Positions 4,134-61,137 of a stretch of 64,000 bases of DNA are shown in pieces. The stretch is taken from contig NW_025964377.1 of the NCBI RefSeq assembly GCF_023055435.1, forward strand, positions 496,001 through 560,000, in the 5' to 3' direction. The DNA comes from Haliotis rufescens (taxonomy: Eukaryota). The first letter of the stretch is position 1, and each line of letters opens with the position of its first letter. The translations under genes and the position numbers were made by a program. Under the pieces are notes generated by a model. That model did no database searches, was not told where the DNA came from, and worked only from the letters and a program-made list of their open reading frames with translations.

Positions 4134-4562
4134 TTTGTTTGTTTGGCGGTGGGGTAGCCTAGTGGTTAAAGCGTTCGCTCGTCAGGCCGAAAGCCCGGGT
4201 TCCATTCCCTGCATGGGTACAATGTGTGAAGCCCAATTTTGGTTACCCCCGTAATATTGCTGGAATAATGCTAAGAGCGCAGTAAAACCATACTCACTCA
4301 CTCACTTGTTCTCTGACGTTGCACTCAGCAATATTCCAGCTATATGACGGCGGTCTGTAAATAATCGAGTCTGAACCAGAAATTCCAGTGATTGACATCA
4401 TGAGCATCGATCCACGCAGTTTGGATACGATGACATGCATCAAACAAAGTCAGCGAGCCTGACCACCCAATCCCGTTAGTCGCCTTTCCCAGCAAGCATC
4501 GTCGCCTTTTACGGCAAGCATGGATTGCTGAAGACCTATTCTACCCCGGATCTTCACGAGTC
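4134..4562 (-). mobile_element. SINE-like family B (no tRNA head), full length, with a family A SINE nested in its (CAAA)n tail
   Basis: 12-bp TSD ACACGGAATAAG at 4122-4133 and 4563-4574; body matches 10110-10356 in reverse complement. Confidence 0.9.
4145..4305 (+). mobile_element. tRNA-derived SINE family A
   Basis: A-box-like TAGCCTAGTGGTTAAAGC, B-box-like GGTTCCATTCC, body CATGGGTACAATGTGTGAAGCCC, (ACTC)n tail; matches 37143-37319 and 56398-56555. Confidence 0.9.
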
Positions 4563-7065: not shown

Positions 7066-7946
7066 TCTTTCAGTACTTCCAACTCGGAGCCAGTGCTTGA
7101 TCACGTAGCACTTATCATGTATATAACACAGGTATTTGTATTACTGGGATTTAAGTCGGAGGTATGTGGAGGTGAAACCGGGTGTGTCCCAACAAAGGCG
7201 TCTTTGTCAGTGCAAGTCTCGTGAATACACTACACAGTGCCTGTTGAACCAGTGACTACAGGACACTATACGCGACAAAGCTGTGATACAAACACCCCCT
7301 GGGACAGTATATCAATACAGCTCGGTACACGGGGGTGAAGACAGCATTGCGACTCTAACATCACTTGGTAGTGGAGAACTGACTGACTGAGTGAGTTTGG
7401 TTTAAGTCTGCATTGAACAGTGTGTCACGATGATTGAGGTGACACTCCTGACTTAATGCAGGTCTTAGACGTTTACCGCACAGCAAAGCGAATTGTTTGA
7501 CACGATAAGGTCCCACGATCCATTAAACATTTTCGATGATAAAGTGAGTTTCAGTCCCGTTCCTCCGCGATCTCCATTATACGCTATGGTGCCTCAAAGT
7601 ATTACGAACAGTTCTCTAAAAAGAAAATATGACTATCTTACTAACTTACTTACAGCTACACATCGAGGCCGATACATCTTCGTGGTATAAGACGTCTATT
7701 CGAGCTTTGCCTGTGGTTTCGGTATTTCTACATATATATTGGTATGTCTAAGGCCCCAAAGGAACAAGTGAATATTGTTTCACGCCGTTGCAAAGAATGG
7801 ACATTGTACCCATGTGAGTAATCGAACCAGGGTCATTAGAATGACGAGCAAAACACTTTAGACTCTTGGCGACTCGACCGCCTCAAAACTTAACTTCACT
7901 TGTCAGCTTTGGGGATTATAGGGTAACTGGTACCATGGATACTACC

Positions 7947-8812
7947 CAGAAAACTGCCCGTCTAGGAAAACTGCCCGTCTGGGATAAATGGCCCTCCAGG
8001 ATAACTGACCCGAAAGGAAAACTGGCACTCTAGGAAGACTGGCCCTCTAGGAAAACTGACCCTCTGGGAAAACTACCCCTCTAGGAAAACTGACCCTCAA
8101 GGAAAACTACCTCTCTAGGAAAACTACCCCTCTAGGAAAACCTGACCTCCAGAAAAACTGACCCAAAAGGAAAACTGACCCTTTTGGAAAACTACCCCTC
8201 TAGGAAAACTGACCCTCTAGGAAAACTACCCCTCTAGGAAAACTGACCCTCTAGGAAAACTGACCCTCTAGGAAAACTACCCATCTAGGAAAACTGACCC
8301 TCTAGGAGGACTGGACCTCTAGAAAAACTGACCCTCTAGGAAGACTGACCCTCTAGGAAAACTACCCATCTAGGAAAACTGACCCTCTAGGAAAACTACC
8401 CATCTAGGAAAACTGACCCTCTAGGAGGACTGGACGTCTCGAAAAACTGACCCTCTAGGAAGACTGACCCTCTAGGAAAACTACCCATCTAGGAAAACTG
8501 ACCCTCTAGGAAAACTACCCATCTAGGAAAACTGACCCTCTAGGAAAACTACCCCTCTAGGAAAACTGACCCTCTAGGAGGACTGGACCTCTAGGAAAAC
8601 TGACCCTCTAGGAAAACTGACCCTCTAGGAACACTGGACCTCTAGGAAAACTGACCCTCCAGGAAGACTGGACATCTAGAAAAAATGACCCTCTAGGGAA
8701 ACTACCCCTCAAGGAAAACTGACCCTATTGGAACACTGGACCTCTAGAAAAACTGACACTCTAGGAAGACTGGACCTCTAGAAAAACTGACACTCTAGGT
8801 AAACGTGCCCTT
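7947..8812. repeat. Minisatellite with a 17-bp unit GGAAAACTGACCCTCTA, about 50 copies
   Basis: Direct 17-nt periodicity, e.g. 8221-8280. Confidence 0.95.
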
Positions 8813-9403
8813 TAATACTGCTGATCTCAAGATGATACTTACATAACCTAGGACATAGCTTGCTGAAACTACCCGCAAGGAGTTCATCATCCCCCTTGAA
8901 CTTCATCGCCCTACCCCTGCTACCCTCGGGTTTCTCAACACCAACCAAAACTTCGGAGCGTTTTATCTAGCTAAGATACTGACAAATATGGATCAACTAT
9001 GTAAAAAAGTGTGTCATAAATGCCGTGGGACGAGGTGTGTGCGTCAGTTGCCCAATTACTTCACAGCGGGGTGTTCAACAAATATATTGCCAACATGACC
9101 CAGGAATCAGAGTCATCTTTTACACGCCTACAGGAATTTTTAATTAACGAATCTTCATCACCAGATGTTATGGATTCAGTTTGCTATTAATGAGCGCCGT
9201 TACGTTGTCAGAATGAGCGTTGAGTGAGTGCAAAACTAACACTGCCAAACATTGCCCCTTCCATCACTGTCCCCCGGCCGGGTGCAAACACATTACTCCC
9301 TGTCACTGAAGAGTTGGTTGTCCTTGAAGGCTGGTGTCGGACTGGCGTATCTGCTCTATACTGTACTCAAGTTGTCAAGTCACAAGACAGGGGAAATAAC
9401 TTG

Positions 9404-9600: not shown

Positions 9601-10109
9601 CTTTGTCAACCCCGCCCTTCACAAATGAGAAGCACGGCGAGGCGCCAAGTTGCATAAAGACAGACACCCACCAAGGCTTAAGAATTATCTTGAGACTTCT
9701 AATGTTTGCATTTTAATGTGCTATACCTGTTTAATGTGCTATATCTGTTTAATGAGCTATGATAAATGCAGTTTTATACATATAGGTAATAAATGTAACA
9801 AAAGGTTGCATAAATTAAATCGTTTACATATTTTATACATTCTTATTGTTATTTCTATTGTGCTGTTCCATTCCACTAACAGGTAATATGCAGGCAGAAC
9901 TGCGTGCACTGTGCCATGATAATTGTTGTTTTAGTCTGTAGACGTTTTGGCATTTAGAAGTTTTGAGAGAATATCATCTTAAACACTAGCTCGGGGCACA
10001 CGGTGGTGGGTAGTCTAGTGGTTAAAGCTCTCCCTTGTCCATCGGAGGACAGCCCGATCTCAGCGCCCGACCTCAGCGCTCAGGTGATCGTAATTCCCAT
10101 ACCTGAACA

Positions 10110-10356
10110 GCCCCGTGAAGATTCGGGGTAGAATAGGTCTTCAGTAACCCATTCTTGCCGTAAAAGGCGACTATGCTTGTCGTAAAAGGCGACTAACGGG
10201 ATCGGGTGGTCAGGCTCGCTGACTTGGTTGATGGATGTCATTGATCCCAATTGTGTGGATATCAATAACTGGATTGTCTGGTCCAGACTCGATTATTTAC
10301 AGACCACCGTCATATAGCTGGAATATTGCTGAGTGCGGCGTTAAACAACCAACCAA
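10110..10356 (+). mobile_element. SINE-like family B, full length
   Basis: TSD CCATACCT(G/T)AACA at 10097-10109 and 10357-10369; starts GCCCCGTGAAGAT and ends GCGGCGTTAAA(CAAC)n. Confidence 0.92.
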
Positions 10357-11225
10357 CCATACCTTAACATAGACTTACGACAGTCGTAGCGCTAAGGTTG
10401 TTTTCTACAACGACACCCATGGCCATCGGTGAGGATCACAGCGTTCCCCGCCTCCATATCACAGCTAGAAGCCACCTGACATCACACTCACTAATTGTCG
10501 AGCAATGTGTGTACGTTATATTACTCAGCTTTCCTATTGCCGATAAATACATTCTAAAAGCGTGCAGACTCTACCGTTTAATAAGCAACGCCCCACACGG
10601 AGATTATACCCGGTATATGGCCTTTGTACTGACTAACCTTGGCTTTACCTGGTCTTACCTGTGGCGTCCGCCTATCAAGATTAAAGACTTCAATATACTA
10701 GGTAGACCAGTTTAAGTGTGTCGGAGTCACGTAGATTTATAGTGGCATGTCATTTATCTGTGTCCAGTGAGTTGATAACTGAACACTGCCATTGAAACCA
10801 ACGCTGTCACTCGGGCGCACAGTCGCTTGTAATTGAAGTGTTACATTCTTTAGCCATTTTGTAATTGGATTTTCTGCGCTTTGCTCTTTGGGTGGGTAGA
10901 GTCGTGATGCAATTTAAGGAGAATCAAGTGGTCCACCCTTTTTTAAATGTATTGGTGCGTGGCGCAGGGATTAATTCCGTGTAAGTATTTATATACAGAA
11001 GATATTTCGAGATTTTGTGGGTCAAAAGGTTATTTAACGCTGTTTTTCGCGGCGTTTCGCAAGTAACATTATCTTATACCGGTTTAAATTGGTTTGAATA
11101 AACGATGAGTATTTGGACCAATTGGGCAGAACTAGAGCCCCGCATGTGTCACTGGGTTAAGCAGGTAGGAGGAAGGAGTATACAGTATGTCAAATAGTTA
11201 CCAATTTCCCGGATCCAGGGTGAAC

Positions 11226-13937: not shown

Positions 13938-14190
13938 GTTGGTTTGTTGTTTAACTCCGCACTCAGCAATATTCCAGCTATATGACGGCGGTCTGTAAAT
14001 AATCGAGTCTGGATCAGACAATCCAGTGATTGAAATCATGAGCATCGATCCACGCAATAGGGATCGATGACCTGCATCAACCAAGTCAGCGAGCCTGACC
14101 ACCCGATCACGTTAGTCGCCTTTTACGACAAGCATAGTCGCCTTTTACGGCAAGCATGGGTTGCTGAAGACCTATTCTACCCCGGATCAC
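13938..14190 (-). mobile_element. SINE-like family B
   Basis: Near-identical to the reverse complement of 10110-10356. Confidence 0.9.
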
Positions 14191-14390
14191 GACTCAGTGT
14201 GTGGTCAGTACAGTCGATGGGGTTCCGGTTAGAAAAGGTCCTCAGCAATCTATGCTGGTCGCGTAAGCTTTTAGGAGGGTCCAAATGAATGGGCAGGTAG
14301 ACGAACCTCATAATATTAATCACTGGATTGTCTGGTCCAGACTGGATAGTTTACAGGCCGCCGTCCTATTGCCGAGTGTGTATTTAACAA

Positions 14391-14734
14391 TGTGAAATGG
14401 GGTTTAACGTCGCGTCCAAGATTATTGCACTCGTATAGCGACGTGCATGTGTGTGTGTTAGCGCGCGCCTTCTTGTACTAGTCCGGACTAATGCCGGGTT
14501 TGTAGTGCTAGCATAATGAAATATCATGCCAAAGTTTAACACGAATACCCCATCCACAAACAGTATACTGACTCCGAGCCGACCAGTCCTTGTTTTACCC
14601 CCTTAATGCCGACGCCAGGCAGGGTATCAACAAGTACCATCCTTAAATGACTTGTGGTATGACGCAGGCAGGGATCGAACCCCGGAACTTCTGCTCTCCG
14701 GGCGGACGCTCTACCACTAGGCCACGGAGGCGGT
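14391..14734 (-). mobile_element. tRNA-headed SINE family C (MetaSINE-like central domain), full length, inserted in the tail of a degenerate plus-strand family B copy (about 14215-14756)
   Basis: Minus-strand head GCCTCCGTGGCCTAGTGGTAGAGCG...GGTTCGATCCC; body GTCATACCACAAGTCATTTAAGGATGGTACTTG...CCCTGCCTGGCGTCGGCATTAAGG; TSD TAT(T/C)TAACAA at 14381-14390 and 14735-14744. The MetaSINE assignment is from recall, not a search. Confidence 0.82.
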
Positions 14735-14924: not shown

Positions 14925-15210
14925 GTTTTTTGTTTTATTTTAACGCTGCACTCAGCACTATTCCAAAATAAATCGAGTCTGGACCAGACAATCCAGGGAC
15001 TGACATCATGAGCATCGATCCACGCAACTGGGATACGATGACATGCATCAGCAAAGTCAGCGAGCTTGTCTACCCGATCCCGTGAGTCGCCTCTTACGAT
15101 AAGCATAGTCGCCTGTTACGACAAGCATAGTCGCCTGTTACGACAAGCATAGTCGCCTGTTACGGCAAGCATAGTCGCCTGTTACGACAAGCATGGGTTG
15201 CTGAAGACCC
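14925..15210 (-). mobile_element. SINE-like family B with an internal 22-bp unit expanded to 5 copies
   Basis: Family B body with AGTCGCCTGTTACGACAAGCAT x5 at about 15085-15194. Confidence 0.88.
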
Positions 15211-15854
15211 TGTCGTGAATTGGGACGTCGCTCATACAGTAAAACCCACGGGTTAAGAACAGGACCCCGTTCAAAGCAGAGTTAAACCCAACTCACTTAC
15301 TCATCAGGACATATTGAAGACGTCCTTTATATTGATTACTACACGAGTGTCTGTCAGATACCATTAATCTTTTAACGAGTGGTTTCAAAACGTGTCTGAC
15401 GAACGAAAGTGAGTTAGATATGCTTGAAACAACAAGTTGTAAGATAAATGGCATCTGACAAGCACATGTGTAGTGACCTGTTTCTTACACAGCCTAAGAT
15501 CGCACCTTTTGGGGATCGAATCGATGCATATTGTTTATTCTCATGATCGCAGTTGCGCATTAATTCATAACACCACGGTCATGAGTGACGTCATCCGATG
15601 TTCTGCTTACTCCTCATATATAATGTGACACTACACAAAAAAGTTTCCGCCGTATCTGTTAATTTTTAAGGCGATGATGATGTTGCAAACTAGATGAGAT
15701 CAAAGAACCTGCGGGATGCCGAGTTAATGATTTTACAACAATGTTTATTTCCATAAGATATCACTGCCGGTGACCGACATTTACATAATGGCATGTTCAC
15801 TGACAACAGTACGCAGGATTTTCTGAGGAGGATTTTCGTTGATTGAGGTATGGT

Positions 15855-16124
15855 GAGTGAGTGAGTTGGGTTTAACGCCGCTTTTAACAGTATTCCAGTT
15901 ATATCACGGCGTTTCAGCTTAATGTGGGAGGAAAGCCCGAAGTGATGCGGGTCTCGGACGTTTACCACTTCGGTGAAACCCACGAGCACGGTTATGGTGC
16001 TGACAAACCTAGAAACATAATCGGGGCGAACAGGGATTCGAACCCACAATCATAGGTTTCTGGCGTGCCCAGGGGACGCAACTTAGATCGCAGCGCCTTA
16101 GACGACTGGGCCACCCGTGCCCCC
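15855..16124 (-). mobile_element. tRNA-headed SINE family D (long variable-arm, Leu/Ser-type head), full length
   Basis: Perfect 14-bp TSD GATTGAGGTATGGT at 15841-15854 and 16125-16138; head GGCACGGGTGGCCCAGTCGTCTAAGGCGCTG...GTGGGTTCGAATCCC; (ACTC)n tail. Confidence 0.92.
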
Positions 16125-18924: not shown

Positions 18925-19128
18925 ACAGCTGTATGACGGCGGTCTGTAAATAGTCGAGTCTGGACCAGATATTCCAGTGATTTGCGTCATGAGCATCGAT
19001 CCACGCAATTAGAATACGATGACATGCATCGAACAAGTCAGCGAGCCTGACCACCCTATTCTGTTAGACGCCTCTTACGACAAGCATGGGTTGCTGAGGA
19101 CCAGTTCTAACCGGGATCTTCACGGGTG
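18925..19128 (-). mobile_element. SINE-like family B, single-hairpin variant
   Basis: Family B body ending CCGGGATCTTCACGGG on the plus strand; only one 22-bp unit. Confidence 0.88.
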
Positions 19129-25844: not shown

Positions 25845-28800
25845 CTGAAGAGAACAAAAAATAAATGTCAGTAAATGGACCATTGTAATGCCACAGTCAG
25901 CATTACTCTAGACCTAAATCAGCATTATTCTTGTCATATAATGGTATGCAAATATCAGCTAATCATTATTCAAGCCATACGATGCAGCGTTAGAAACTGG
26001 CACTAGTCCTATAGTCCTTGCCAAACTGCCCAATGGTAAGGGTATCATAAGGGCTAGTAGAAATTTGCCCTTTTTAAGGGTTTTGCTATATGTTATCATT
26101 ATAAGGATTAGTGGCTGAAAACTGTTAGTTTCTAACCCTGCGATGTAATTATATCATGATACATGTACTCTAGCCTTACAGGTCAAGACACAGAGAATGT
26201 TGAGTGGAAATTGATGTTTGCGTTTGCTGTTTACTGTACACGCTAATATACCATCTGGCAAGATAGGACCCCTGACTTAATCAGGCTACAACAGTCATGA
26301 GAACTATACCTCTGTCACCATCACAGTTTGTGACTTAAACCACTAGCCTGCAGCCCCAGCCCAGTAAAATCTCTTTCGGTCTAGTAAGCTTTGAAAATAT
26401 CCACACATAGCGTATAATCTATTTAAATGATGAAAAGATACCTAATAAAAATATTTTTGTCACAGCCTGCCACTATTATTATTATTACAGGTCCAAATAA
26501 ACATACTAAAAAATTGGCACAAAACCCTACTCGTTTTGTTCAGTTTTAGGCAAACGTCATAGAATCATACAATATTCTATCACAGTGAGCTAGTTAATCG
26601 ACTGTTCGTCTCACCATTGCTGCTCAAGTCTGTATTAGTAGCTTGATCCTTTGTTGTGTGTTCACGGCTGTGCGGCCTCTTTCGGCGGCGTTTATGCTTC
26701 CCATGATTCCCTGAAATGTGGTCGCTAGGCGACAGAGAGTCCATAGTATTTCTGGCACTGAATATATTGGGGGTTGTCCCACCATCAAAAGTCCGAAGCT
26801 GTCTATCATTTGGGAGGAAACAGTCAACTCCGCCGGGAACATGCATTCTGGGAGATTTTTGACTATTTGTCTCCGCACCAGACATGTCAGCTTCATTGGA
26901 GGAATGGCCATGACCTTGGGGTGGCACATGTTGTAAGGAACTTGACCTTTGACCCAGCCGGTACAACACAGCAGGGTCGTGAAGTTGTTTTTCTCCGTTT
27001 CTTGTGCCACCATTTTGGTCCAACAAAGGTTGATCTAAGTACAAAAAGTTGACTTTTAGTAGGGAGTTTTGAAATAGTTTGAGGAGAGCATGTTAAGATT
27101 TCATTTCATTTTCTATTTCACTTTACCTGAGATGGCAAGCCTCATGGTCAAAAGCCTTGTCTCCCTTACATATTAATTTTCGAAGCTTCCTTGGCCCTGT
27201 TTTACAAAGCGCTCTCATAGATGACAGTTGAAAGTCATGTTATGATCACCTTAGTATTAAGAAAGCATCACACTAACGTATTGTCAAGGTAACTAACCTG
27301 GGGAAATATCGTCAACGCTTTTCGCTGTGTTGATGCTGTTGAAGTTGTTGTCGCTGGTGCTGTGAGGGCCGCTGTAGTGAGGTATGGACCCGTTCGGCAC
27401 AAGAGTGTGATTCTGTGAACATAACAAACAGTATTGTTTAAGTTCGAGTAGCTGCTGTACAGGGCACCTGGAGGGATCTGACAGACTGGGGCAAGGGAAG
27501 GAAGATGAATGGACAAATAAAAGTCTACACATGCCCTAGGTCCATTGAACCATTTCATATACTTTGTGATCAGTGAAGATCTGGGTTCAAATAGGTCTTA
27601 AGCAAACTATGCTTGCCCTAACAGCCAACTACCCTTGTCGTAAGAGGCGACTAACAGTGATTTGGTGGTCAGACTCTCTGACTTGGTTGATGCATGCCAT
27701 CGTATCCCAATAGCGTAGATCGATGCTCGTGATGTAAATCACTGACTTGTCTGGTCCAAACTTGATTTTTTACAGACTGCCCGTCATATAGCTGGAATAT
27801 TGCTGAGTGCAGCGTTAAAGAACAAAGAAACAAACAAAAACATATTCTTTGTTGTTGTTTTGTACTTACAGGAACGCTGCCTTTCCCAGCTTGGGAGTTA
27901 ATCATCTGACATTCCACTTCAGACATTGGGTTCACGTTGATGTTCATCTTGTTGTTATGGTTACTGTTGCCATGGGGACCGTGTCCATTGGCAACCAGTC
28001 CGTTGAGGCCATTGAGTGGGTATCCATTCATGTATTTCTTCCTCATAGACTCGCTGTAGATTCTCTGGGCTTGATCCTGGTACTTGGAGTGGATCACCCC
28101 GTTCATGGCTGCAACAGAATAGAAGCCATTATGTATACACTATGTATACAATCTGAGTTGGCCCTTAATCCAAACCACAATATTGCCATTATGAATACAA
28201 CCTTAGTAGGCCCTTAATCGACACTATAATGTTGCCATTATGTATACAGTATGCATACAATCTTTGTTGGCCCTTAATCCAAACTCGGTCTGGCCACTAT
28301 GTATACAATCTTGTTGGCCTTCAATCCACCTACAATGTTGCCATTATGAATACAACCTTAGCATTGCTTAGTAGGCCCTTAATCAACACTATAATGATGT
28401 CATTATGTATACACTATGTATACCATCTGAGTTGTCCTTCAATCCACACAACAATGTTGCCACTATGTATACATCTGATGTCATCACTTACCCATCATGC
28501 GACGTTGTTGTCGTTGTTTCCACCAGCACATGACGATGAAGACGAACAACAGCAACAACATGACCCCGAGGACAATTCCCAGCACCATGTAGAGGGTCTC
28601 GCTGCTGGACTGGGTGCTTGTCTTCTCCGTGTCGATCCCGTCTCCCCTGTGTGTCGGATTGCGGGGCTCCTCGACACGGGGTTTGTCCGGGGACGGCATA
28701 TTCCTTGTGTTGGCCTTGTCAGTTACTGGCTCGACCGGGAATGCTTTGGGAGGTTTGGTCAGAGCTGAAAATAGGTGCTGGGTGTGAGTTGGGAACACTT

Positions 28801-40800: not shown

Positions 40801-43800
40801 ACAGGTTCACACCTTATTCTGTACTGAGGGAGGATATATAGTGTTGGATTGATGGATAAAAAGAGGGATAGAGGTGGATTGATGGAAGAAAGGATGGATA
40901 GAGAGGATAAGATGGAAGGATAGATGATAGAGAGAAGGATGGTGTTGGATTGAAGAAAGGAAAGATGCATGAATGACAGATAGAGTTGGATTGATAGATG
41001 GATAGAAGGAAGTTTGAATGGGTAGATTGATGATATTACAAATTTAAGGGAAAATGAATTATAGCTTGGAGGATGGAAGGATAGTTTACCTCGAAATATC
41101 AGAAAGATTAAAAAATATGCATTTTTAATTCCAATAACCACTTCACCAATTTCAGCAATTTTGTATGTGTACACGTGACAATGTTGAACTATCCACTGTT
41201 CGTGTTGTGGCCTGGGGTCCCTGTTGTCTACTGCTGAAGCTACTGAATCTATGTCTGCCTGCACAGCAACACTGAACACAATGACAAGGACCCCTTGACT
41301 TGTAACCCTCCATCTATGGACAACCCACAATCCAGCAACCCATGCTTGCCATAAAAGGTGACTATGCTTGTCGTAAAAGGGGACTAACGGGATTGGGTGG
41401 TCAGGCTCGCCCACTTGACCAATGCATGTCATCGTATCTCAATTGCATGGGTCGATGCTCATGATGTCAATCACTAGATTGTCTGGTCCAGACTCGATTA
41501 TTTACAGACTGCTGTCACAGAGCTGGAATATTGCCAAGCTCTGAACAACATACAAACACTCACTCCTTCACTCACTCATCAGAGAGCAAAAACATTCACC
41601 TTGTGCCTGCACAGTGAGATCGATGTCTTGTAACGCTGTGACGTGCTTGCTCATCTTGCACTGGTACCTGCCACTGTGAGACTGCTGCACATTCTTTATC
41701 AACACACTCCCTGATGGTAGCACTGTAAACACATCTGCAACAAAAACAGCAAATGATCATCCAAGAGTTGTGTGTCAGGATCCTCATCCCAACACTGAAC
41801 AAGTGTTTACTGACCAAATTTGAACACAATCTGAACAAATAATGTGGGGATAAAAAACAACAATTTTGAAAAAAACTTATAATAAATCATATATAAATCA
41901 TAATAATCAGGGTATTTCCAGAAACACGTTGCCATGGTTTTTGCCCACTCCCTCAGCTGAAAATGTGCCATTTGCTTAGAATTTATGGTATTCTTACAGA
42001 TCCCTGCCGATTTGTCCAGGATTGTACAAATTCCTCCTTCTCTATGATTTATAGAGGCATCATGCCCAGGATCGGATCTATTAGTTATAACACACACAGC
42101 TCCATCTGCTTCTGTCACTCAGTTGCCAACATCCGCTTGTAAGGGGAGGCAACTCTCCACACTCAGTTGACATCAGCTGGTGAGAGCACTCTCTAACTAA
42201 AGGAGGCGGAAACTTTTGGCCAAGGTATACTGGCAACGTGCAGACAGAAGTTGTCTGTGGAGATGGGAGTGAAGTCGTCAGCCCAAATTGTCTTGATTAT
42301 GAAACATTACCATGAACTGATGATGGAGGATGGTGTGCAAGCGCACGTAATTACAACGCGTAAATCATTATGACGATGCAAGAGGTTCTCATTAGCACTC
42401 GCACTGGAAATGTCTGTCACATAAGTAATGACCAACATCTGACGAGACACATATTCACAAACCAAACTAAACCCATCCAATAGAGTTCCAATTTTTCCAA
42501 TCTCTGTTCTGATTTGCCAAACTTCCCTCTTTCACATGAAACCCAGAGAGGATTGGATGAATGTAGGGCTAAACCATCCTTATCGCTGTATAAGTTCAAA
42601 TTTCCCAAGCCAAAGTCTCCCAACTAGAAGAATGATACCATGTGACATATATGCTCTGGAAGTCTTTCAGTAGTGTTTGATGATGATCCTACTTGCATCT
42701 CCGTCAATTGAAAAGGTACAGTCTGAACAGAAGGGGAGTGACACCTTCATGAAGACCTACACTCAGAAAACAAAGTAAACCTGTCATGATCACACCAGAT
42801 TTACAAAAATACATCTCAACAACTTAAATACTAAAACTATCATTTCCAAATAGCCCTCGAAATCTGTGGTGGACCAGCTGCTTTTTCAACACCAAACACC
42901 ACCCATTTATGACAACCCTCCACACAGACCAGGACATGAAAACTGCTTATTACTGTCACCCCAACAACCACCAAACACCCACCCATTTATGACAACCCTC
43001 CACACAGCCCATGACATGACAACTGCTTATCACTGTCACCCCAACAACCACCAAACACCCACCCATTTATGAGGACATGACAACTGCTTGTCACTGTCAC
43101 CCCAACAAACACCCACCCATTTATGACAACACTCCACACAGACCAGGACATGAAAACTGCTTATTACTGTCACCCCAACAACCACCAAACACCCACCCAT
43201 TTATGACAACCCTCCACACAGCCCAGGACATGACAACTGCTTATCACTGTCACCCCAACAACCACCAAACACCCACCCATTTATGACAACACTCCACACA
43301 GACCAGGACATGAAAACTGCTTATTACTGTCACCCCAACAACCACCAAACACCCACCCATTTATGACAACCCTCAACACAGCCCAGGACATGACAACTGC
43401 TTATCACTGTCACCCCAACAACCACCAAACACCCATCCATTTATGACAACCCTCCACACGGCCCATGACATGACAACTGCTTATCACTGTCACCCCAACA
43501 AACACCCACCCATTTATGACAACCCTCCACACAGCCAAGGACATGACAACTGCTTATCACTGTCACCCCAACAACCACCAAACACCCATCCATTTATGAC
43601 AACCCTCCACACGGCCCATGACATGACAACTGCTTATCACTGTCACCCCAACAACCACCAAACACCCACCCATTTATGACAACCCTCCACACAGACCAGG
43701 ACATGACAACTGCTTATCACTGTCACCCCAACAACCACCAAACACCCACCCATTTATGACAACCCTCCACACAGACCAGGACATGACAACTGCTTATCAC

Positions 43801-46800
43801 TGTCACCCCAACAACCACCAAACATCCACCCATTACTCTATCTTCTCTTGTTTCCTGGACAGAGCCCCCAGTCAGCCCACACCAAGTCACCATTCCTCAT
43901 CCAACTGACTTCTATTCAAAAGATGTTTTTCACAAGATCAAGAATCCATTTGAGAACATAAGTCTGACACCCAACATCCACCCCATTCGAGCGTGACCGA
44001 CACTGTATAAAAGACCCTGATAAGCTCAGCGATATCTACCTCCATTATAACTCTTCCAAGAATTTTTCAAGATAGGGGGCTGTGTATTAAGGGAGATAAA
44101 TGGATTGTCTCCCATTAAAGAACTCTCCTGCCAGGAGACAAAGACACAGTATGTTTCAGCATCTGTTGAGAAGCACTCACTGATGAAAGACGTGGGCATC
44201 CCTATGATGGATGGTGCTCTCGCCACCAACTAGAAATACTGTACGTTTCCCCACTCCCAACCCTCCTGGCAACAGGCTCCACTTGATAAAAGCTCCATTT
44301 ATCAATTGTCAACTTCTCCCCATGGCTCCAAGTCAAACTCCAAAGGTAGTCTGGCAAGGGTTGGAATTTAGATGAGATATTTTGGCTGATTCTGACAAAC
44401 CCGCCTCCAAGAGAGATGAGAAAAATTAGAAGCTGACAAAAAACAGGAGTCGGAGTAACATATTCAATTTTTCAAAAATACAAATTTCGGATCTCCCAGT
44501 GTTTTTAATAAAGCAGTTTCTCTGCTGCCAAAAGATGTCTGTGGGCTTCAATGTGAAAGATCTCTTTCATGAGTGGAAAAACACGGCCTATGCCACTGCA
44601 CTATATCTGAGTGATGTCATGTGTGTTCTTGGTACTCTCTATATTATTGCTCCAAGATTCCAAAGAAAACTGCCCTCAATCGGCAATTCACTTAGTGGAC
44701 TTCAGTCAAAAACAATACCAACTTCACACTTATATAGATGCCAGTATTAGGTTTCAGTATCAAATCTACTGTGAAACTTATTTTTCTTCTTTTGATACGG
44801 CCCACATTAAGATTCAGATTGAATTCATCAATCAACTAGTTTTATCTAATTGAGTGAGTTGTGTTTAACTCAGCTTTTAACAGTATTCAAGTTATATCAC
44901 GGCATGTCAGCTTCATGTGGGAGGACAGCCCGAAGCGATGCAGGTATAAGATGTTTACTATCTTGGTAAAACCCATGAACATGGGTATGGTGCTGACAAA
45001 CCTAGAAACATAATTGAGACGAATCAGGATTCAAATTTTTCATCTAAGATACTGTATGTTACATTCACCTGATAAAGTGGCAAGAGGTAGCTCTTAAACG
45101 CTGTTTACAAAGAATGAAGAAGCTGTTATCCATAAATAAGTGTCAAGTTTTCATGTACAGAACAGTTTTAAAGTAGTAAACAGTAGTGTGTTTTCACATA
45201 TCTAAGGCCAGATATATACACAATACAGGAAACTGTTTGGGTAGATAGCTATCTAATAAAAACAAAGTAACAAGATATATTGGTGAAAGGCCGGGATACT
45301 TAATATTTAATTACAACAGCATTTTTGAATGCCCTACAATTGAAAAGTATGATTTTACAGATGGCTGAATGCATAGGGATGTTTTTATTGAAAGATCAAC
45401 CAGGTCTTTAAGAGACTATCTGACAGTTATGAGATCTTCTAAGAGGCAAAATAAACAGACGAGATGGTCTCCCTATCAAACAACATAAAATTCTTATCCC
45501 CATATTTAACTCCTACTACAAATTACTGACAAGCATAAGAGGCTGTTTACACTTGCGGAACCACAGGAAGTTGTCCCTGGCCAATCAGAATGCCCCATTC
45601 TTCTGAAGCTGATCAAAAAGTCAGATGGGACTGGCTACAAAATCTGAATTGGTTGATTAAAAAGTGGGAATGGAAACTCCATCCTTTAGGACTGTCATCA
45701 ACAATCTGAGTGGCCATTCATTCTGCTGGAGATTCTGTAGGAATTCTGCCCTGGTTTCCATGGTAACTGACATGACATAATTTGTTTTGATTTGTGATAC
45801 TGGTGTTTGTCTTTGGTATGGCAGCTTGTCTGGGCAATTGGCAGACTGGGCAATTGCCCCCCCCCCCCCCCCCCCCCCATTTTCTCCCCCCACCCTCCCC
45901 TGGATCTTCCCAGTCCTTCCAAGCTGGCAGAGAGATTTTCTTCTTCTTCCCTCATCATCTCAGCCTGGCTACCAAGTCAGCAGAGAAGACAACATTTTTT
46001 GTCTACCCTCTTCAGTTTCTTATAGGCAAGTTTACATTTCTTTGAAATCTCTTCATTTTGCTCCAAGGACAGTTCTTTCATAATCTCTTCAACTCATTAT
46101 AAGGACATTTCTTTCATAATCTCTACATCTCATTCTAAGGACAGTTCCTTCATAATCTCTTCATCTCATTCTAGGGATATTTCTTTCATAATCTCTGCAT
46201 CTCATTCTAAGGACAGTTCTTTCATAATCTTTTCATCTCATTCTAGGGACATTTCTTTCATAATCTCTTCATCTCATTCTAGGGACATTTCTTTCATAAT
46301 CTCTTCATCTCATTCTAAGGACATTTCTTTCATAATCTCTTCATCTCATTCTAAGGACAGTTATTTTTTGTATCATCCCACAAATGTATTTCACGAGAAA
46401 CACAATGCTAATTAGTTTGATTGTTTGTTGTTTAACGCCGAACTCGGCAATATTTCATCTATGTGACGATGGTCAGTAAATAACTGAATCTGGACCAGAC
46501 AATCCAGTGATTGACATCATGAGCATCGATCTACACAACTGGGATAGGATGACATGCATCAACCAAGTCAGCGAGCATAACCACCCGATCCCGTTAGTCG
46601 CCTCTTACAACAAACATGGGTTGCTGAAGACCAGTTCTAACCAGGATCTTCACGGGTTGATCAACAATAATAAAGAGTGATATGATAATCTTTAAGATAT
46701 GCACTGTAGCCATTTATGTCTAAATTAGATGGTTTTGAACTGATTTGAAGGGTAAACATTCTACTGACGTACACAACTTGATACTTTTTGACATCATACA

Positions 46801-55800: not shown

Positions 55801-58800
55801 ATCCTGTATCCAACTAGACATCCAGTTTGTAAACAACATGGATCTCAACGTCCAGATTTTGGTTGACTGCAGGATTTGCAACACATGTCAAACCAAAATG
55901 TAACTCTGGAATTCCAGCCAAGTTTGGCAAAGGTGGAAGCTGGACTGTCATAGTCAGTTAATGGGTAGTCGAAGGGGATCAGTGGGCCTAGTTTGATGCC
56001 CCACATGGGTACAAGACCTGTGAAGATCCAGGGTAGAATAGGTCATTGCCGTAAAAGGTGACTATGCTTGTCGTAAGAGGCGACTAACGAGAGTGGGTGG
56101 TCAGGCTTACTGACTTGGTTGATGCATGTCATCGATCCCAATTGTGTGGATTGATGCTCATGATATTAATCACTGGATTGTCTGGTCCAGACTCGATTAT
56201 TTACAGACCGCTATCATATAGCTGAAATATTGCTGAGTGCGGCGTTAAACAACAAACAAACATGGGCACAATGTTTGAAGCCAATTCTGGTGTCCCCTGC
56301 CAGGGTCATTAACTGAAAGCCCCAAACAGAACATTCTAAATCCAAAATTACATCAGAAATTAATCTATAACATATGTACTTGTCTCCTTCACACCAGGGG
56401 CTGTCCGGTAGCCTAGTGGTTAAAGCATTCGCTCGTCACGCCAAAGACCCGGGTTTGATTCCCGTCATGGGTAATGTGTGAAGCCCATTTCTGGTGTCCC
56501 CCACCGTGATATTGCTGGAATATTGGTAAAAGTGGCGTAAAACCATACTCGCTCACTCCTTCACACCAGCCACTACACTTTATCAAATCAACTCAAAGGA
56601 GATATCCGAAATCTTAAACTACAACCATTCTATTCCAACAGAACAGACTGCCGCCACCAACTTATCTCAAAAGTATAACATAATGAATGTCCCATCTACA
56701 ACAAAGCGTTCTCTCAACAACACTTTTTTAATAACACTATCTTAAATTGTCATTACCAGGGGGAGACAACTCTACTAGAACAAAAACTTGACAGTGTACA
56801 CACTGAAAATACACTGTGGTTCCTCACTCGAATCTAACACAACAAACTCTGCCTCTATTTCATTCAGCTTGTTACAGAGCACATAAGCAGTTTTTAATAC
56901 CCCTGGTGTGTTGAAGAAAGCGAAATTCAATACAAGCCCGTGGCCTTAATGTTTTTCCTGAGCGGTTGCCAGGACAGCCATTTTTCCCTTTTCCAGGCTG
57001 CATCCTATGCTTAGCCGCCTGTACTCCAAGACCCCAGCAGTAAAGGCACCATGTACATGTGGGGGATATATGTCTCCGTTAGCCCGGCCTTACAGTAATA
57101 CGGAAACACAATGTTAAGAATAACCCCAAAAAACAAGTACAAAATGTTGTTAAATAAATACATTATAAGCTCGCATAGCGGGAATATCTACACAGATCGG
57201 TGCCATCTTGAAGCCAGAAGGGAGATTCGGCCAGTGAAAGCAGGTGGAACGATGTCGGCTTTCGTCTCCCCACCCTTCCTTTCCCTACCCCAAACCTGGA
57301 CGGATCATGTTTACCTAAATCCCAAATATCCCAGGTGGGGACCAGGTGTAAGTGAACATTTCTACACATAATGTGTCAAAATATATACATAATCTACACT
57401 GCCGAGCTTGCCGAAGCCACGATCTTGCTGCCTGGCGACCTTTCAGGGTTCCTGTAATGTTGCCGATCTGTTTGTTTCTGCGGACATTTAGCATCCAAAC
57501 ATGAAAATAATCACGGAGGGGGTAGTCTTCTCTTAAGGTGTTTTGCTACACACAGGTCTTGTATTGGAATCCGCTAGGGGTCAGAACTTGATAACTCTTC
57601 TGACATATATCCTAAATTGCACGTCTACCTCATACGACAGAAAGTTGGAAAATGTTTGGCTTAGCTTATAAACATTAAATATTGATGCTTTTTGTTTTTC
57701 ATTAACAAATAATCATGTTCCCACTGGAATCATTAATTAAACTTTAAAAGTTCAAATTCAAAGAAGTAGAACTTGATATTGAGCGCCATCTATCACTTCC
57801 TGCGTAGAGTTACTTCCCTTTGAATGGCTGCTCTTAGTGTATGTTCGGAGGTCAGGTGTAGTAATTAAGTCCAAGTTTATAACACTACATTAAGTCTTTT
57901 ACAGCGTTACTTTTTACCTCGTTCACATTATATATCTTAGCAACAAAAAAAGACCCAAACTACCAATAACAATCTCACAAAACCATTTGAAAGTATCTAA
58001 ACAATATGCCCACTGCAAAAATCCCCAACATAATGTGCTCACTTAAAATGCAGCTAGAAATAATATTTATCAAGGAAATTAGTCAATTATGTCATTTTTG
58101 AAATAATAAAATCTCCCCAACCAAATTATGAAAATATTTCTACAAGGTCTTCACCTCTGTTTACAACTGGCACATGGGGGTCGGAGTGGACATCATGTTC
58201 CCATCATCACCACCAGGCTCTGTACCAATGTAGGTTAAACCAACAGCCACAGCACAGAGAGCAATAGTCATCCACAGCAAATCATTAAAGCCGATCATCT
58301 CGAAAGACGGCCATTAGAACAACTACATGCTACCACTTCAACCTGTACGCAAATGTCTTTTTCATGACAGCTCTTCAGATTCGGAAAGAAAACTCAACAA
58401 TAGGTACAACTACCCATAATCCCTGATTTCTCGAACCAGTGAATGTTTGCTCAATTAGGGTTTGAGGTTTCAGTAGAAATTCAAAACAGATTATGCGAAC
58501 GGTTTGTTTTTGATGTGGGTATACCGCAATCTTCCTAATTTCAAAAGCAGTTCTTCTCGCCTCCGAGATAGTCGACTGCAAGGGATCTGTACTGGGAGAT
58601 GTTTCCAATTTTGACAGAACGTTCTCATTAGTGTCAAAGCCAAGCTTTTTTCTCTTACACTCAGTATGAGAACGATGTATTCTGTAACTCTCTGCGGTAT
58701 TAGTTTCAGGGAGCTGATTTTCTGGCCATCTTTGTTTGTGATAATATGAAGCAACATTAGCATTTATTGGGATCTTAACACCTTCCTCTTGGAAAAAGCT

Positions 58801-61137
58801 GGGTTAAAAGGCACACTAAAACACGATAATTGACCCGACTATTTTTTATGTCCATATCCAATTTTTGCATCAGTATCCAGTTTTTACATCAGTTTTTATT
58901 TTGTAAGAAAGAAAAGACATTTAAGCATCAAATAACTTAGTGTAACATCCACTAAAACATGGTAATGGATTAGTTTTAGTTTTCTTGAATCAGTCGGAGT
59001 GTTTCTTTACTCTACAGAGCCATAACATCTCATGAGCATGCTGACTGACCGTTCCACATAGGAACATAATCATGTTTTAATGTGGACTGGCAACATAGAG
59101 GGGCTATTTAAAGCTAATACATTCCCATAAAAATATGCAAAGTTACCGATAAAAACCGATCACACTTATTTTTTTAGAGTTTACAGGCATGTTTTGGGGG
59201 ATTTTTTAAAATATAATAAACAATGATTTATGTTGCAGAGCATGATTTCCATCCTGATAACATCTTCCTGTATGCAGGGTGCATACTTCAAGATATGCTT
59301 AGGGTTAAAAGATGGTGTTACACACATGCTCAGTTGGGGCTACTCTTTCACACACAGTTCTTAACATGGAAAAATAATTAAATTCTGCTGACAGCTTATC
59401 ACATCAATAACCTTTAACCTTTGTCTACAGCAAAAAGCAGAAGTGATAAACTTCTCCCTTCTGGTGCAATTCCATTAAGATTTGTTCAAATACATGTTCT
59501 GGAAGAATTAGTAACTTCCTGCTCAGAGTGATGGCCTTGGAGCGGGGGGAGGAGCAGGACGTCGGGACCAGGATTTCTCCATCTATCGTTCTATTGATGA
59601 ATATTCTATGACCTTGCGCTAAGATATTCAACTTTTGTACAGTATGCTCTCATGCTAAGATGGTCATCTTTCATCTTGCTCTCACACTAAGAATGTCACC
59701 TTTCATCCAGTATGCTCTTACACTAAGATGGTCATCTATCATTCAGTATGCTCTTAGGCTAAGATGGTCATCTCATCCTGTATGCTCTCTCGCCAATGTG
59801 GTCATCAATCATCCAGTATGCTCTCACGCTAAGATGGTCATCTATCATCCAGTATGCTCTCACGCTAAGATGGTCATCTTTCATCTTGCTCTCACACTAA
59901 GAACGTCACCTTTCATCCAGTATGCTCTCACGCTAAGATGGTCATCTATCATCCAGTATGCTCTCATGCTAAGATGGTCATCTATCATCCAGTATGCTCT
60001 CACGCTTAGATGGTCATCTATCATCCAGTATGCTCTCACGCTAAGATGGTCATCTACCATCCAGTATGCTCTCACGCTAAGATGGTCATCTATCATCCAG
60101 TATGCTCTCACGCTAAGATGGTCATCTATCATCCAGTATGCTCTCACGCTCAGATGGTCATCTATCATCCAGTATGCTCTTACGCTAAGGTGGTCATCTA
60201 TCATCCAGTATGCTCTTACGCTAAGACACGTGGACTGCTACCCTGAGAAAGTGATGTCACACAATTGTTTGTTTCTTACTTAACACAACATTCAGCAAGA
60301 TTTCAACTTTTTCTAACAGTGGCCAGTAGTCAAGCCAGACAATCCAGAGATTAAAATTATGAGCAACGATCCACCCAGTAATCAACCAAATCACCGAGCC
60401 TGACCATCCGATCCAGTTCATCGCCTCTTACGAAGACCTTTTCTGACCCAGATCTTCACAGGTCTGATCATTAACTAACTCATTTGGAGTACCATATTCG
60501 ACGTAATAAGCGCCCAGGGCGCTCTCAAAATTAGAAATAGGGGGCTCTTATTAGAATGTTATTTTAGTGAAAAAAACAGAGTTGAAAGATAAATTTCATG
60601 GTTTATGCTGACAGCCTGAAATGTTTATGTACGACAGATATATTTTTCCAGATTTAAATGCCCATAATTATAGGTGCATATAACACACGAGTGCGTATTA
60701 TACGCGAATAAATAAGTCTTGTGTACATTGATCAATCGGAAGGGGAGCTAATTGGGATTGTTCACTAGCCAATATCTTAGCAAATGTGGACGTGGGCACT
60801 TAATAGAGCGGGGCGCTTATTACGTCGAATACGGTAATAAAACTTGTTAACTCACCTGGAGGTCGGAGTACCACCAGAGGGATGCTGATGATGGATCCGG
60901 CAACGGCTGACGCCACACAGTGGTATATGCCTTCATTTGATGAGTATTCAAAATTGTTAAAATATAAATTGTCTCCCCTAAACTCCAATCCATTGTGGTC
61001 TTCCTGTTTCAAAAGCTTGCTGTTAAACAGCCATTTCACTGTGGCATTTGGAGGTGTCACCTCACAATATATTGTCACTGGGGCATGATGGGATATCACA
61101 GAAGTCTTTGGTTCCCTCAGAAATGCCGGCACTGCAC
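25723..61137 (-). CDS. ihog: Interference hedgehog (Ihog/Boi/Cdon/Boc family) Hedgehog co-receptor; 17 coding exons, about 1150 codons, N-terminal signal-peptide exon not located
   Basis: Exons with GT-AG ends and consistent phases: 60856-61137, 54804-54956, 41600-41734, 36450-36617, 35821-35922, 35139-35294, 34117-34257, 33115-33426, 32160-32360, 31472-31684, 30793-30995, 29440-29659, 28492-28764, 27870-28108, 27298-27412, 26615-27034, 25723-25844. Domains: 5 Ig + 2 FNIII + TM. The first FNIII contains [14 protein letters not shown], characteristic of Ihog/Boi. Confidence 0.9.
26615..27034 (-). CDS. ihog: Ihog-like exon: cytoplasmic 3
   Basis: 420 nt, phase 1-1; ...[30 protein letters not shown]. 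Confidence 0.8.
27298..27412 (-). CDS. ihog: Ihog-like exon: cytoplasmic 2
   Basis: 115 nt, phase 0-1, bridging the flanking exon phases; [26 protein letters not shown]. Confidence 0.72.
27568..27842 (+). mobile_element. SINE-like family B, intronic
   Basis: GTGAAGATCTGGG...GTCGTAAGAGGCGACTAAC...GCTGGAATATTGCTGAGTGCAGCGTTAAA plus a CAAA-rich tail. Confidence 0.85.
27870..28108 (-). CDS. ihog: Ihog-like exon: cytoplasmic 1
   Basis: 239 nt, phase 1-0, CAG|...|GTAAGT. Confidence 0.85.
28122..28478. repeat. Degenerate tandem repeat filling most of an intron
   Basis: Recurrent GCCATTATG(T/A)ATACA...GGCCCTTAATC units. Confidence 0.7.
28492..28764 (-). CDS. ihog: Ihog-like exon: stalk and transmembrane helix
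   Basis: 273 nt, phase 1-1; [32 protein letters not shown]. Confidence 0.92.
29440..29659 (-). CDS. ihog: Ihog-like exon: FNIII-2
   Basis: 220 nt, phase 0-1; [11 protein letters not shown]...[24 protein letters not shown]. Confidence 0.93.
30793..30995 (-). CDS. ihog: Ihog-like exon: FNIII-1 C-part and FNIII-2 start
   Basis: 203 nt, phase 1-0; [20 protein letters not shown]...IGIKWQ. Confidence 0.93.
31472..31684 (-). CDS. ihog: Ihog-like exon: FNIII-1 N-part
   Basis: 213 nt; [39 protein letters not shown]...YEVSNLKP. Confidence 0.93.
32160..32360 (-). CDS. ihog: Ihog-like exon: Ig-FNIII linker with a polybasic tract
   Basis: 201 nt, TAG|...G|GTGAAT, phase 1-1, open frame. Confidence 0.78.
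33115..33426 (-). CDS. ihog: Ihog-like exon: complete fifth Ig domain
   Basis: 312 nt, phase 1-1; PHFTLWP...VAIPCLS...WFKDGQRL...[25 protein letters not shown]. Confidence 0.85.
33494..33776. repeat. Compound (GAGT/GACT/GAGC)n microsatellite
   Basis: Visible in sequence. Confidence 0.95.
34117..34257 (-). CDS. ihog: Ihog-like exon: Ig4 C-half (alternative donor possible, exon end 34126)
   Basis: 141 or 132 nt, phase 1-1; [33 protein letters not shown]. Confidence 0.87.
34343..34612 (+). mobile_element. Two tandem SINE family A copies sharing a deletion in the tRNA head
   Basis: About 34343-34465 and 34487-34612; both read GGTTAAAGC(G/C)AAGACCTGAGTTCG and lack the anticodon-arm segment of full copies. 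Confidence 0.85.
34642..35045. repeat. Minisatellite with an 84-bp unit, about 5 copies
   Basis: TGTGTCTGTCACAACTGGGATACCATGACTGGAAACAG recurs at 34642, 34725, 34809, 34893 and 34977. Confidence 0.93.
35139..35294 (-). CDS. ihog: Ihog-like exon: Ig4 N-half
   Basis: 156 nt, phase 1-1; [26 protein letters not shown]. Confidence 0.9.
35821..35922 (-). CDS. ihog: Ihog-like exon: Ig3 C-half
   Basis: 102 nt, phase 1-1; [20 protein letters not shown]. Confidence 0.9.
36195..36425 (+). mobile_element. Degenerate SINE-like family B
   Basis: TAGAATAGGT...GTGGTCAGACTTGCTGACT...GGAATATTGCTGAGTGCGGCTTTAAACAAC. Confidence 0.75.
36450..36617 (-). CDS. ihog: Ihog-like exon: Ig3 N-half
   Basis: 168 nt, phase 1-1; [28 protein letters not shown]. 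Confidence 0.9.
37143..37319 (+). mobile_element. SINE family A, full length
   Basis: 14-bp TSD ACTGGACCCAAGGG at 37129-37142 and 37320-37333; A and B boxes; (ACTC)n tail. Confidence 0.93.
37383..37588 (+). mobile_element. Small palindromic Penelope-like insertion with a hammerhead-like core
   Basis: 10-bp TSD AGAGGAGGAG at 37373-37382 and 37589-37598; ~80-bp inverted arms (37383-37460 and 37469-37550); right arm CAC-CTGATGA-AGGAGTAAGTGTTTACTCT-GAAAC-ATT-GTG followed by AATAAA. Confidence 0.78.
41333..41556 (+). mobile_element. SINE-like family B, 5'-truncated
   Basis: Matches 10142-10350. Confidence 0.87.
41600..41734 (-). CDS. ihog: Ihog-like exon: Ig2 C-half (this frame is not in the ORF track)
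   Basis: 135 nt, phase 1-1; [31 protein letters not shown]. Confidence 0.87.
42890..43834. repeat. Minisatellite with an 80-bp unit, about 12 copies
   Basis: AACCCTCCACACAGACCAGGACATGACAACTGCTTATCACTGTCACCCC... with period 80 (43681, 43761). Confidence 0.95.
44851..45035 (-). mobile_element. SINE family D, head-truncated
   Basis: Aligns to 15860-16045 (TATGGTGCTGACAAACCTAGAAACATAAT). Confidence 0.85.
46052..46362. repeat. Minisatellite with a 36-bp unit, about 8 copies
   Basis: TAATCTCTTCATCTCATTCTAAGGACATTTCTTTCA, period 36. Confidence 0.93.
46415..46658 (-). mobile_element. SINE-like family B, single-hairpin variant
   Basis: Reverse complement of family B, ending GGATCTTCACGGG. Confidence 0.9.
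48190..48570 (-). mobile_element. 3' fragment of a non-LTR retrotransposon (C-terminus of the RT ORF plus a microsatellite tail)
   Basis: KLRTYRIVK...LEPYL...[12 protein letters not shown]...[19 protein letters not shown] resembles the C-terminal Cys/His region of LINE ORF2; followed by (TCTG)n/(TATG)n. Confidence 0.8.
50289..50565. repeat. Local triplication of a ~94-bp unit
   Basis: CATATTTGAAAACAACCAAGTTTCTTG recurs at 50289 and 50382, with a diverged copy near 50478. Confidence 0.85.
52585..54660. repeat. Satellite with a 45-bp unit (CATGACCTGATAGACAGAAGACATGCCAGTCAGTGCAGGTCTTGC) and 33/34-bp variants
   Basis: Homogeneous 45-nt periodicity; intronic in the Ihog-like gene. Confidence 0.97.
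54804..54956 (-). CDS. ihog: Ihog-like exon: Ig2 N-half
   Basis: 153 nt, phase 1-1; [28 protein letters not shown]. Confidence 0.85.
55535..55937. mobile_element. MITE-like inverted-repeat element with a family B copy (about 55575-55762, minus) inside
   Basis: Perfect 20-bp inverted repeat TCCACCTTTGCCAAACTTGG / CCAAGTTTGGCAAAGGTGGA. Confidence 0.6.
56015..56259 (+). mobile_element. SINE-like family B, full length, inserted into a family A copy
   Basis: TSD ACATGGG(T/C)ACAA at 56003-56014 and 56260-56271 is itself family A body sequence; family A resumes TGTTTGAAGCCAATTCTGGTGTCCCC. Confidence 0.92.
56398..56555 (+). mobile_element. SINE family A, full length
   Basis: 14-bp TSD CTCCTTCACACCAG at 56384-56397 and 56556-56569. 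Confidence 0.93.
56919..57575. mobile_element. Possible old non-autonomous DNA transposon
   Basis: Imperfect ~25-bp inverted ends AGCGAAATTCAATACAAGCCCGTG / CACAGGTCTTGTATTGGAATCCGCT. Confidence 0.4.
59640..60226. repeat. Minisatellite with a 36-bp unit CCAGTATGCTCTCACGCTAAGATGGTCATCTATCAT, about 16 copies
   Basis: Direct periodicity. Confidence 0.95.
60265..60464 (-). mobile_element. Degenerate SINE-like family B
   Basis: GAGCCTGACCATCCGATCC...GACCCAGATCTTCACAGGTC. Confidence 0.75.
60492..60834. mobile_element. TA-flanked MITE (pogo/Tc1-mariner type)
   Basis: 24-bp TIRs CCATATTCGACGTAATAAGCGCCC / GGGCGCTTATTACGTCGAATACGG (1 mismatch), TA on both sides. Confidence 0.88.
60856..61137 (-). 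CDS. ihog: Ihog-like exon: Ig domain 1
   Basis: CAG|...G|GTGAG, 282 nt, phase 1-1; PAFLREPK...[17 protein letters not shown]...NEGIYHCVA. Confidence 0.9.

Follow-up and report, generated by a model that had tools for sequence, protein, structure and literature searches.

At position 10110 of the window (the whole stretch of 64,000 nucleotides from Haliotis rufescens that was analysed) begins a complete copy of a SINE family about 255 nt in length, which is flanked by TSDs, has no tRNA head by either Rfam or ARAGORN, and resembles the published LP-SINEs of molluscs (Table 1). The first-pass annotation had described a tRNA-less repeat family with more than a dozen copies or fragments, and this is borne out: with the 10110 copy as the BLAST query, 19 merged loci were recovered in the window, of which 16 belong to this family and the other three are tail-only matches to a tRNA-headed SINE. 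The hairpin core of the head, with two or fewer mismatches allowed, is found 14 times in the window against an expectation of 0.01. Across 40 evenly spaced 10-kb stretches of the genome (400 kb), 65 fragments other than tails were counted, 32 of them reaching the first 10 bases, and extrapolation from this 400-kb sample gives about 200,000 fragments genome-wide.

Table 1. Coordinates of the SINE copies and of the structured head in the window, and placement of the motif in RNA-virus contigs.
Feature	Position	Strand	Basis or detail
Full SINE copy: structured head, body, LINE-type tail, (CAAC)n	10110..10356	+	sequence, BLAST
Left TSD, 13 nt	10097..10109	+	1 mismatch to right copy
Right TSD	10357..10369	+	
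Full SINE copy, TSD-bounded	4308..4562	-	tRNA-headed SINE nested at tail
TSD-bounded SINE copy	56015..56261	+	deletion in head
Older TSD-bounded SINE copy	27568..27826	+	start unchanged
Near-full SINE copy	13938..14198	-	
SINE copy, single hairpin unit	46423..46658	-	
SINE copy, single hairpin unit	18926..19128	-	3' end lost
SINE copy, five tandem 22-nt hairpin units	14939..15254	-	
Decayed SINE copy	60381..60464	-	start unchanged
P1 (predicted pseudoknot)	10110-10115 pairs with 10124-10129	+	minimum-free-energy fold
P2 (predicted)	10116-10123 pairs with 10136-10143	+	8/8 pairs with compensatory changes
Conserved AGAAUA linker	10130-10135	+	
P3 (predicted)	10148-10150 with 10198-10200	+	threading across families
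Hairpin inside P3, duplicated in the 10110 copy	10157-10171 (degenerate), 10179-10193; then UAA	+	
Motif in L165 (RdRP_4)	23 nt past last listed ORF		
Motif in L166 (RdRP_3)	415 nt past last listed ORF		
Motif in L168 (RdRP_3)	73 nt past last listed ORF		
Motif in L310 (RdRP_3)	122 nt past last listed ORF		tandem
Motif in L163 (A21 capsid)	about 10 nt past last listed ORF		
Motif in L162 (S-domain capsid; long ORF without Pfam match)	100 nt past last listed ORF		tandem

Several other repeats share the window with this family. Sequence of the tRNA-headed SINE, which has a related LINE-type tail, lies at 4140-4305 (+), 56400-56560 (+), 14668-14725 (-) and 15865-15990 (-), with weak Rfam tRNA matches at 56408 and 14668; the tail of the 4562 element contains one such copy, inserted within it. 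Large minisatellite arrays occupy 7864-8850, 52464-54476, 42780-43926 and 59607-60199, with units of 17, 45, 80 and 36 nt, respectively. On the body of one SINE copy, a piRNA-like antisense small RNA of 31 nt (L018:1673-1703, minus strand) dominates the few reads of two small-RNA runs, 63 and 9 of which begin at 1703. The 142 small-RNA reads on one SINE copy form no pile at the head, and are too few to count either way. A search of sequencing runs for the motif listed no RNA run.

The three TSD-bounded copies had been said to begin at the same G, five bases before GTGAAG. The four starts quoted, at 4562 (-), 10110 (+), 56015 (+) and 60464 (-), are all present in the sequence, and the three copies described as TSD-bounded have TSDs of 13 nt with one mismatch (10110), 12 nt with one mismatch (56015) and 12 nt (4562), the last of which sits beyond the nested tRNA-headed SINE. 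Among 34 heads from the 400-kb genome sample, the bases before GTGAAG are conserved as A (30/34), C (32/34), C (28/34) and C (29/34), the fifth base before GTGAAG is G in 21, and the sixth is random. TSDs were recognized in 16 of 26 head-plus-tail copies, and in 11 of these they end 3-5 bases before GTGAAG; in the best-hit set, 24 of 32 copies have a TSD, 19 of them ending in the same interval. Given this base conservation and the ends of the TSDs, the start of the SINE is precise to about one base, although the G itself is not constant. An alignment of 24 young copies, made to test whether the first base is inherited, gave no clear link.

The evidence supports the head, about 75 nt in length, as a conserved RNA motif with a predicted H-type pseudoknot at its very 5' end. 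By threading, the 5' strand of P1 is followed by the 5' strand of P2, the 3' strand of P1, a linker ending in AGAAUA, and the 3' strand of P2. Farther 3', and common to the families threaded, P3 encloses an internal loop and the GUCGU/GCGAC hairpin, after which comes UAA; both the unpaired AGAAUA and the UAA of the hairpin are highly conserved. In the 10110 copy, the 22-nt hairpin unit is present twice, so that the head spans 10110-10205. This unit, or a unit of about 82 nt containing it, has also grown into tandem arrays, at 15083-15209 (-) in the window and at G000:C13:31924009-31924524 and G000:C24:33891527-33891711.

In a MAFFT alignment of 12 representatives, which were picked by hand and from which P3, being out of register, was left out of the count, 89.4% of cells are paired and 38 cells are double-changed, in comparison to 14.4 after shuffling. 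Compensatory changes occur at all eight pairs of P2 in this alignment, and again at 8/8 in a model-fitted alignment of 61 matches, in which P2 is 75.8% paired. For P1, 75-100% of cells are paired across the 12 families with modest covariation, as several families keep CCCG/CGGG and the outer pair fails in five of the 12. The hairpin was the search pattern and is hence invariant by selection. Threading scores were above those of shuffles (p<0.05) in 12 of 22 representatives, with three failing to thread in that run, and single-sequence folding z-scores are weak for SINE copies (-1.2 and -1.6), pseudoknots being outside the folding model. From the fold proposed in the first-pass annotation, the two hairpins, UGAAGAUC/GGUCUUCA and GUCGU/GCGAC, are correct, as is its view of the head as a conserved structured RNA tied to 5'-end definition. 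Its outer helix CCCGU/ACGGG and its pseudoknot between the loop GGGU and ACCC are poorly supported, with 56.7% and 57.4% of cells paired across the 12 families, respectively; in the 12-family alignment, the partner of the 5' CCCG is instead the CGGG of the loop.

The head had also been reported not to take a canonical HDV fold, and this agrees with the present analysis, as there is no Rfam match and covariation gives another helix order. Rfam returned no match to the motif in the window, in 15 relatives, in five viral loci or in one LINE locus. Neither Rfam nor covariation reveals the nested P3/L3/P1.1 core of an HDV-like ribozyme in the head, and no Rfam match to hammerhead, twister, twister-sister, pistol or hatchet was obtained at E values up to 1, 5 and 10. 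Threading of the head onto the HDV, twister, pistol and hatchet folds failed as well.

A search for autonomous LINEs with the same head, suggested earlier as a check, recovered intact elements carrying the motif at or near the 5' end; in a pattern search, two LINE-like loci were present among 30 heads with other downstream sequence. The element L240 is an intact LINE of 6.2 kb with a 14-nt TSD, an ORF1 of 432 aa and an ORF2 of 1228 aa comprising endonuclease, RT and RNase H, and its domains and the published Nimb homology would place it in the I group. At its 5' end are 58 nt predicted to fold as an HDV-like ribozyme, with the motif directly 3'; they match RF02682 (E=0.0019) at 28.5 bits, under the gathering cut-off of 44 bits. 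These 58 nt can be modelled with P1 containing a G1-U pair, P2, P3, L3, P1.1 and J4/2, and the TSD abuts G1. The candidate ribozyme (L240:8413-8470, minus strand, G000:C2) has a minimal P4, and its 3' end is preserved in more than 900 copies. The ribozyme-bearing clades listed in the part of the source drawn on here do not include Nimb (PMC5786205).

With a query lying wholly 3' of the motif, two LINE subfamilies were found among 30 loci, one bearing the ribozyme (14 loci, 13 of them with the whole ribozyme and one with part of it) and one without it (16 loci). In the motif-only subfamily, 15 of the 16 rows start at the motif and have unrelated flanks, except that two share flanks. In eight of the 11 longer loci, the TSD runs up to the first T and an extra G is absent; an intact ORF2 of 1238 aa is present in four of the 11. 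In the ribozyme-bearing subfamily, the ribozyme 3' end precedes 919 of 981 exact motif copies, and the first 30 such copies in genome order start at G1 (28 copies) or inside the ribozyme (two copies), and never at the motif. The motif alone fixes the 5' end, but it does not do so behind the ribozyme.

This contrast bears on what the motif does. If the motif were an efficient cutter or a promoter that sets the start, it ought to prevail over a ribozyme in front of it, since the latter would be removed or skipped; the absence of motif starts among these 30 copies therefore argues against the motif as either. Self-cleavage by a ribozyme of a new class cutting just 5' of the pseudoknot, as first envisaged, would need the motif to be silenced or slow in these elements. 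Its appeal is that the motif stands in for the HDV-like ribozyme at the same place in the sister LINEs, that AGAAUA and the UAA of the hairpin are highly conserved, and that motif-only LINE copies have no extra G; set against this are the lack of a match to any Rfam ribozyme and the variability of the first base, which may be G or T or may be missing.

An internal RNA polymerase II promoter, which the first-pass annotation considered the main alternative, has in fact already been published as a proposal for the LP-SINEs (Matetovici et al., 2016, PMC4758252), and it would account for the 5'-end position. The same paper describes the 77-nt head of L1Tc as promoter and ribozyme in one (PMC4758252). 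In addition, in 21 of the 34 SINE heads the first-position G could have arisen by reverse transcription of a cap, and would in that case suggest that the transcripts are capped. The 0/30 count is at odds with a promoter that would fix the start at its first base whatever the context: transcription of the ribozyme-bearing LINEs begins 58 nt or more upstream, with no starts at the motif. The first base of motif-only LINEs is T, and an extra G is absent from eight TSD-bounded copies of them. Furthermore, compensatory pairing and presence in RNA viruses require a role at the RNA level, and the promoter reading is regarded as improbable.

The hairpin core was found in nine viral contigs. A relaxed pattern gave 15 viral matches, with the full fold in eight contigs; seven of the 15 were dropped as chance, and L305 was outside the model search. 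The motif is present in six distinct RNA-virus contigs (Table 1), and L167 is near-identical to L163 over the part compared. In all six, it lies on the coding strand, 3' of the last listed ORF and less than 190 nt from the contig end, and the tandem copies in L162 differ by compensatory changes. A DNA-virus contig of 212 kb holds one intergenic copy with a decayed P3, which may be a captured relic. A case is known in which an iridovirus took up an insect SINE at a different site (PMC6401454), so that little weight is placed on this copy.

The iridovirus case and the decayed P3 would also suit a broader proposal, in which the copies in viruses are SINE heads acquired by capture and without function there, and the motif serves in retrotransposons as a binding site for the LINE protein, fixing the 5' junction. 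This is very improbable, given that the viral copies have compensatory P2 sequences of their own, even between tandem copies, and lie in every case at the 3' end, on the coding strand. Moreover, the motif also heads RTE-type elements (L320, and RTE-9_CPB as described in PMC4758252), so that it is not tied to a single LINE protein. The viral location weakens self-cleavage too. RNA viruses do have ribozymes in their UTRs, but those in the part of the source drawn on here are found for the most part in 5' UTRs, ahead of ORFs or as tandem pairs (PMC13725137), and a cut on the 5' side of a motif in the viral 3' UTR would presumably remove the genome end. Taken with the LINE starts, this leaves a self-cleaving head unlikely, while the tie between the head and 5'-end definition stands.

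Beyond these viruses, the hairpin core is found in at least 122 metagenome stretches, mostly as repeat-like heads with unrelated upstream flanks. One metagenome repeat (L065:357-502) has two complete motifs in tandem, like two of the viruses, and in L125, L117, L134 and similar metagenome loci the linker before AGAAUA appears to be interrupted by a long stretch of simple repeat, and the pseudoknot's 5' half was not located there. A collection of prokaryotic genomes gave 11 matches, five with the fold, all of which were taken as eukaryotic contamination: two are microsatellite-tailed SINE-like pieces near contig ends, one runs into LINE-like UTR sequence in a bivalve-symbiont assembly, and two are in Sedimenticola bins. 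Eukaryote-like SINE or LINE sequence in bacterial bins was seen at L316:86-290, L320:474-1046 and L321, near contig ends in L316 and L320, and likely reflects contamination or chimeric assembly. The motif was found in none of 150 further prokaryotic genomes, and no phage record contained most of it. The lack of a credible prokaryotic copy fits a role that needs a host factor.

One such role would be that of an element for cap-independent translation or ribosome binding, placed in the LINE 5' UTR and the viral 3' UTR and helping SINE RNA to reach the LINE protein, with the 5' end set otherwise or by nuclease stalling as a side effect. It would account for the retention of the motif behind an HDV-like ribozyme on an uncapped mRNA, for the viral 3'-UTR position, and for the absence from the prokaryotic genomes searched; cap-independent initiation has been proposed for ribozyme-led retrotransposon RNAs (PMC6765202). 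By itself, it leaves the starts of SINEs and LINEs at the first base of the pseudoknot unexplained, and the motif is kept in the non-coding SINEs of many hosts. Such an element is considered quite unlikely.

The reading preferred here, at a probability of roughly one in two, is that the head would act as an xrRNA-like block to 5'-to-3' exoribonucleases, of an undescribed class, and in this way set the precise 5' end. A block to exonucleases should not prevail over an upstream ribozyme, because the end that results from ribozyme cleavage is a 5'-OH. Under this proposal, a copy would be transcribed by read-through from host promoters, and after decapping or an upstream cut an enzyme of the Xrn1/Xrn2 type would degrade the leader and stall at the pseudoknot, giving an uncapped, stable RNA that begins at the motif. 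Through the LINE-type tail, the protein of an I-group LINE would then copy this RNA by target-primed reverse transcription. In elements with an HDV-like ribozyme ahead of the motif, the ribozyme would be the first to cut, and its 5'-OH product would not be a loading site for these enzymes, so that copies would start at the ribozyme. Counting against this reading, the motif remains intact in LINEs in which it never forms the 5' end, and there it may serve some other purpose. In RNA viruses, the fold would protect a short 3'-terminal RNA.

Also against it, a ring encircles the 5' end in known xrRNAs, and resistance to Xrn1 does not necessarily follow from a plain H-type pseudoknot. The motif is modelled with at least one pseudoknot, as P1 and P2 are predicted to cross, and in the RNA viruses it is on the coding strand of the 3' UTR in 6/6 contigs and in tandem in two of them. 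This 3'-UTR position and the tandem copies fit a block, as described for xrRNAs, for which a pseudoknot is a requirement as well (PMC8374639). No known xrRNA model in Rfam was matched by the motif, and the coremin consensus, as given in the part of PMC10520033 drawn on here, is absent from it. The HDV fold has itself been argued, in the discussion of one paper, to resist 5'-3' exonucleases (PMC11331408).

For the precise 5' ends of retrotransposons without a promoter, the current explanations are an internal promoter or a self-cleaving ribozyme. If true, a block to exonucleases would add a third mechanism. The wider proposal, held with slightly less than even confidence, is that the motif represents a new structural class of xrRNA common to unrelated RNA viruses and to cellular LINEs and SINEs, that it is the first xrRNA to operate within a cellular genome, and that it offers a third route to a precise 5' end that is exchangeable with an HDV-like ribozyme between sister LINEs. 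A 2021 review named cellular xrRNAs as still to be found, and as a goal (PMC8374639). Whatever its activity, a single RNA module of about 75 nt is conserved among LINEs, the SINEs of several hosts and unrelated RNA viruses, and the sister LINE subfamilies with and without an upstream ribozyme form a natural control pair.

In comparison with known systems, the SINE family is, by description, length and head, very likely already known as an LP-SINE. LP (LINE promoter) SINEs, including Hdi_LP and Hmi_LP, were described in Haliotis, Littorina and oysters, with a head of about 70 bp homologous to the 5' ends of Nimb-17_LMi, I-3_DR and RTE-9_CPB (Matetovici et al., 2016, PMC4758252). Like the present family, they are tRNA-less and have TSDs and a tandem-repeat tail, the Hdi_LP consensus being 255 bp, and by eye the 'Nimb-17 homology' rows of the scallop alignment in Suppl. 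Fig. S2 show matching helices, the AGAAU linker and the hairpin. The tail hexamer is AATATT in this SINE and AATATA in that paper. There, the head was read as a LINE-derived promoter, with the promoter-plus-ribozyme of L1Tc as analogy, and the parts of the paper drawn on here contain no RNA structure, virus link or upstream ribozyme (PMC4758252). The literature searched, a scope that excludes subscription papers, figures and bioRxiv supplements, gave no report of the fold, of its occurrence in viruses, of its pairing with an HDV-like ribozyme or of the contrast between sister subfamilies. These four points appear to be new here; what has been published already is the SINE family and the conservation of its head at the sequence level. 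The head is a real, undescribed RNA motif within a known SINE family, most likely a variant of the xrRNA kind.

The viral xrRNAs (flavivirus 1a/1b/2, Tombusviridae/Luteoviridae and coremin) are likewise compact and pseudoknotted, lie in 3' UTRs and are often in tandem (PMC8374639). In coremin xrRNAs, Xrn1 is reported to stall one base before the first stem, an offset resembling that of the motif's start (PMC10520033). They differ from the motif in helix order and sequence, and the motif is also present in cellular retrotransposons. HDV-like ribozymes do the same job that is proposed for the motif, providing a precise 5' end from a read-through transcript, but the SINE head is without their nested P3/L3/P1.1 core. 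Similarly, Pr77 of L1Tc/ingi and the bipartite non-autonomous LINEs offer a parallel in that a short 5' module is shared across different elements and kept in their non-autonomous derivatives; Pr77 is an HDV-like ribozyme plus promoter, whereas the motif has another predicted fold and is also found in RNA viruses.
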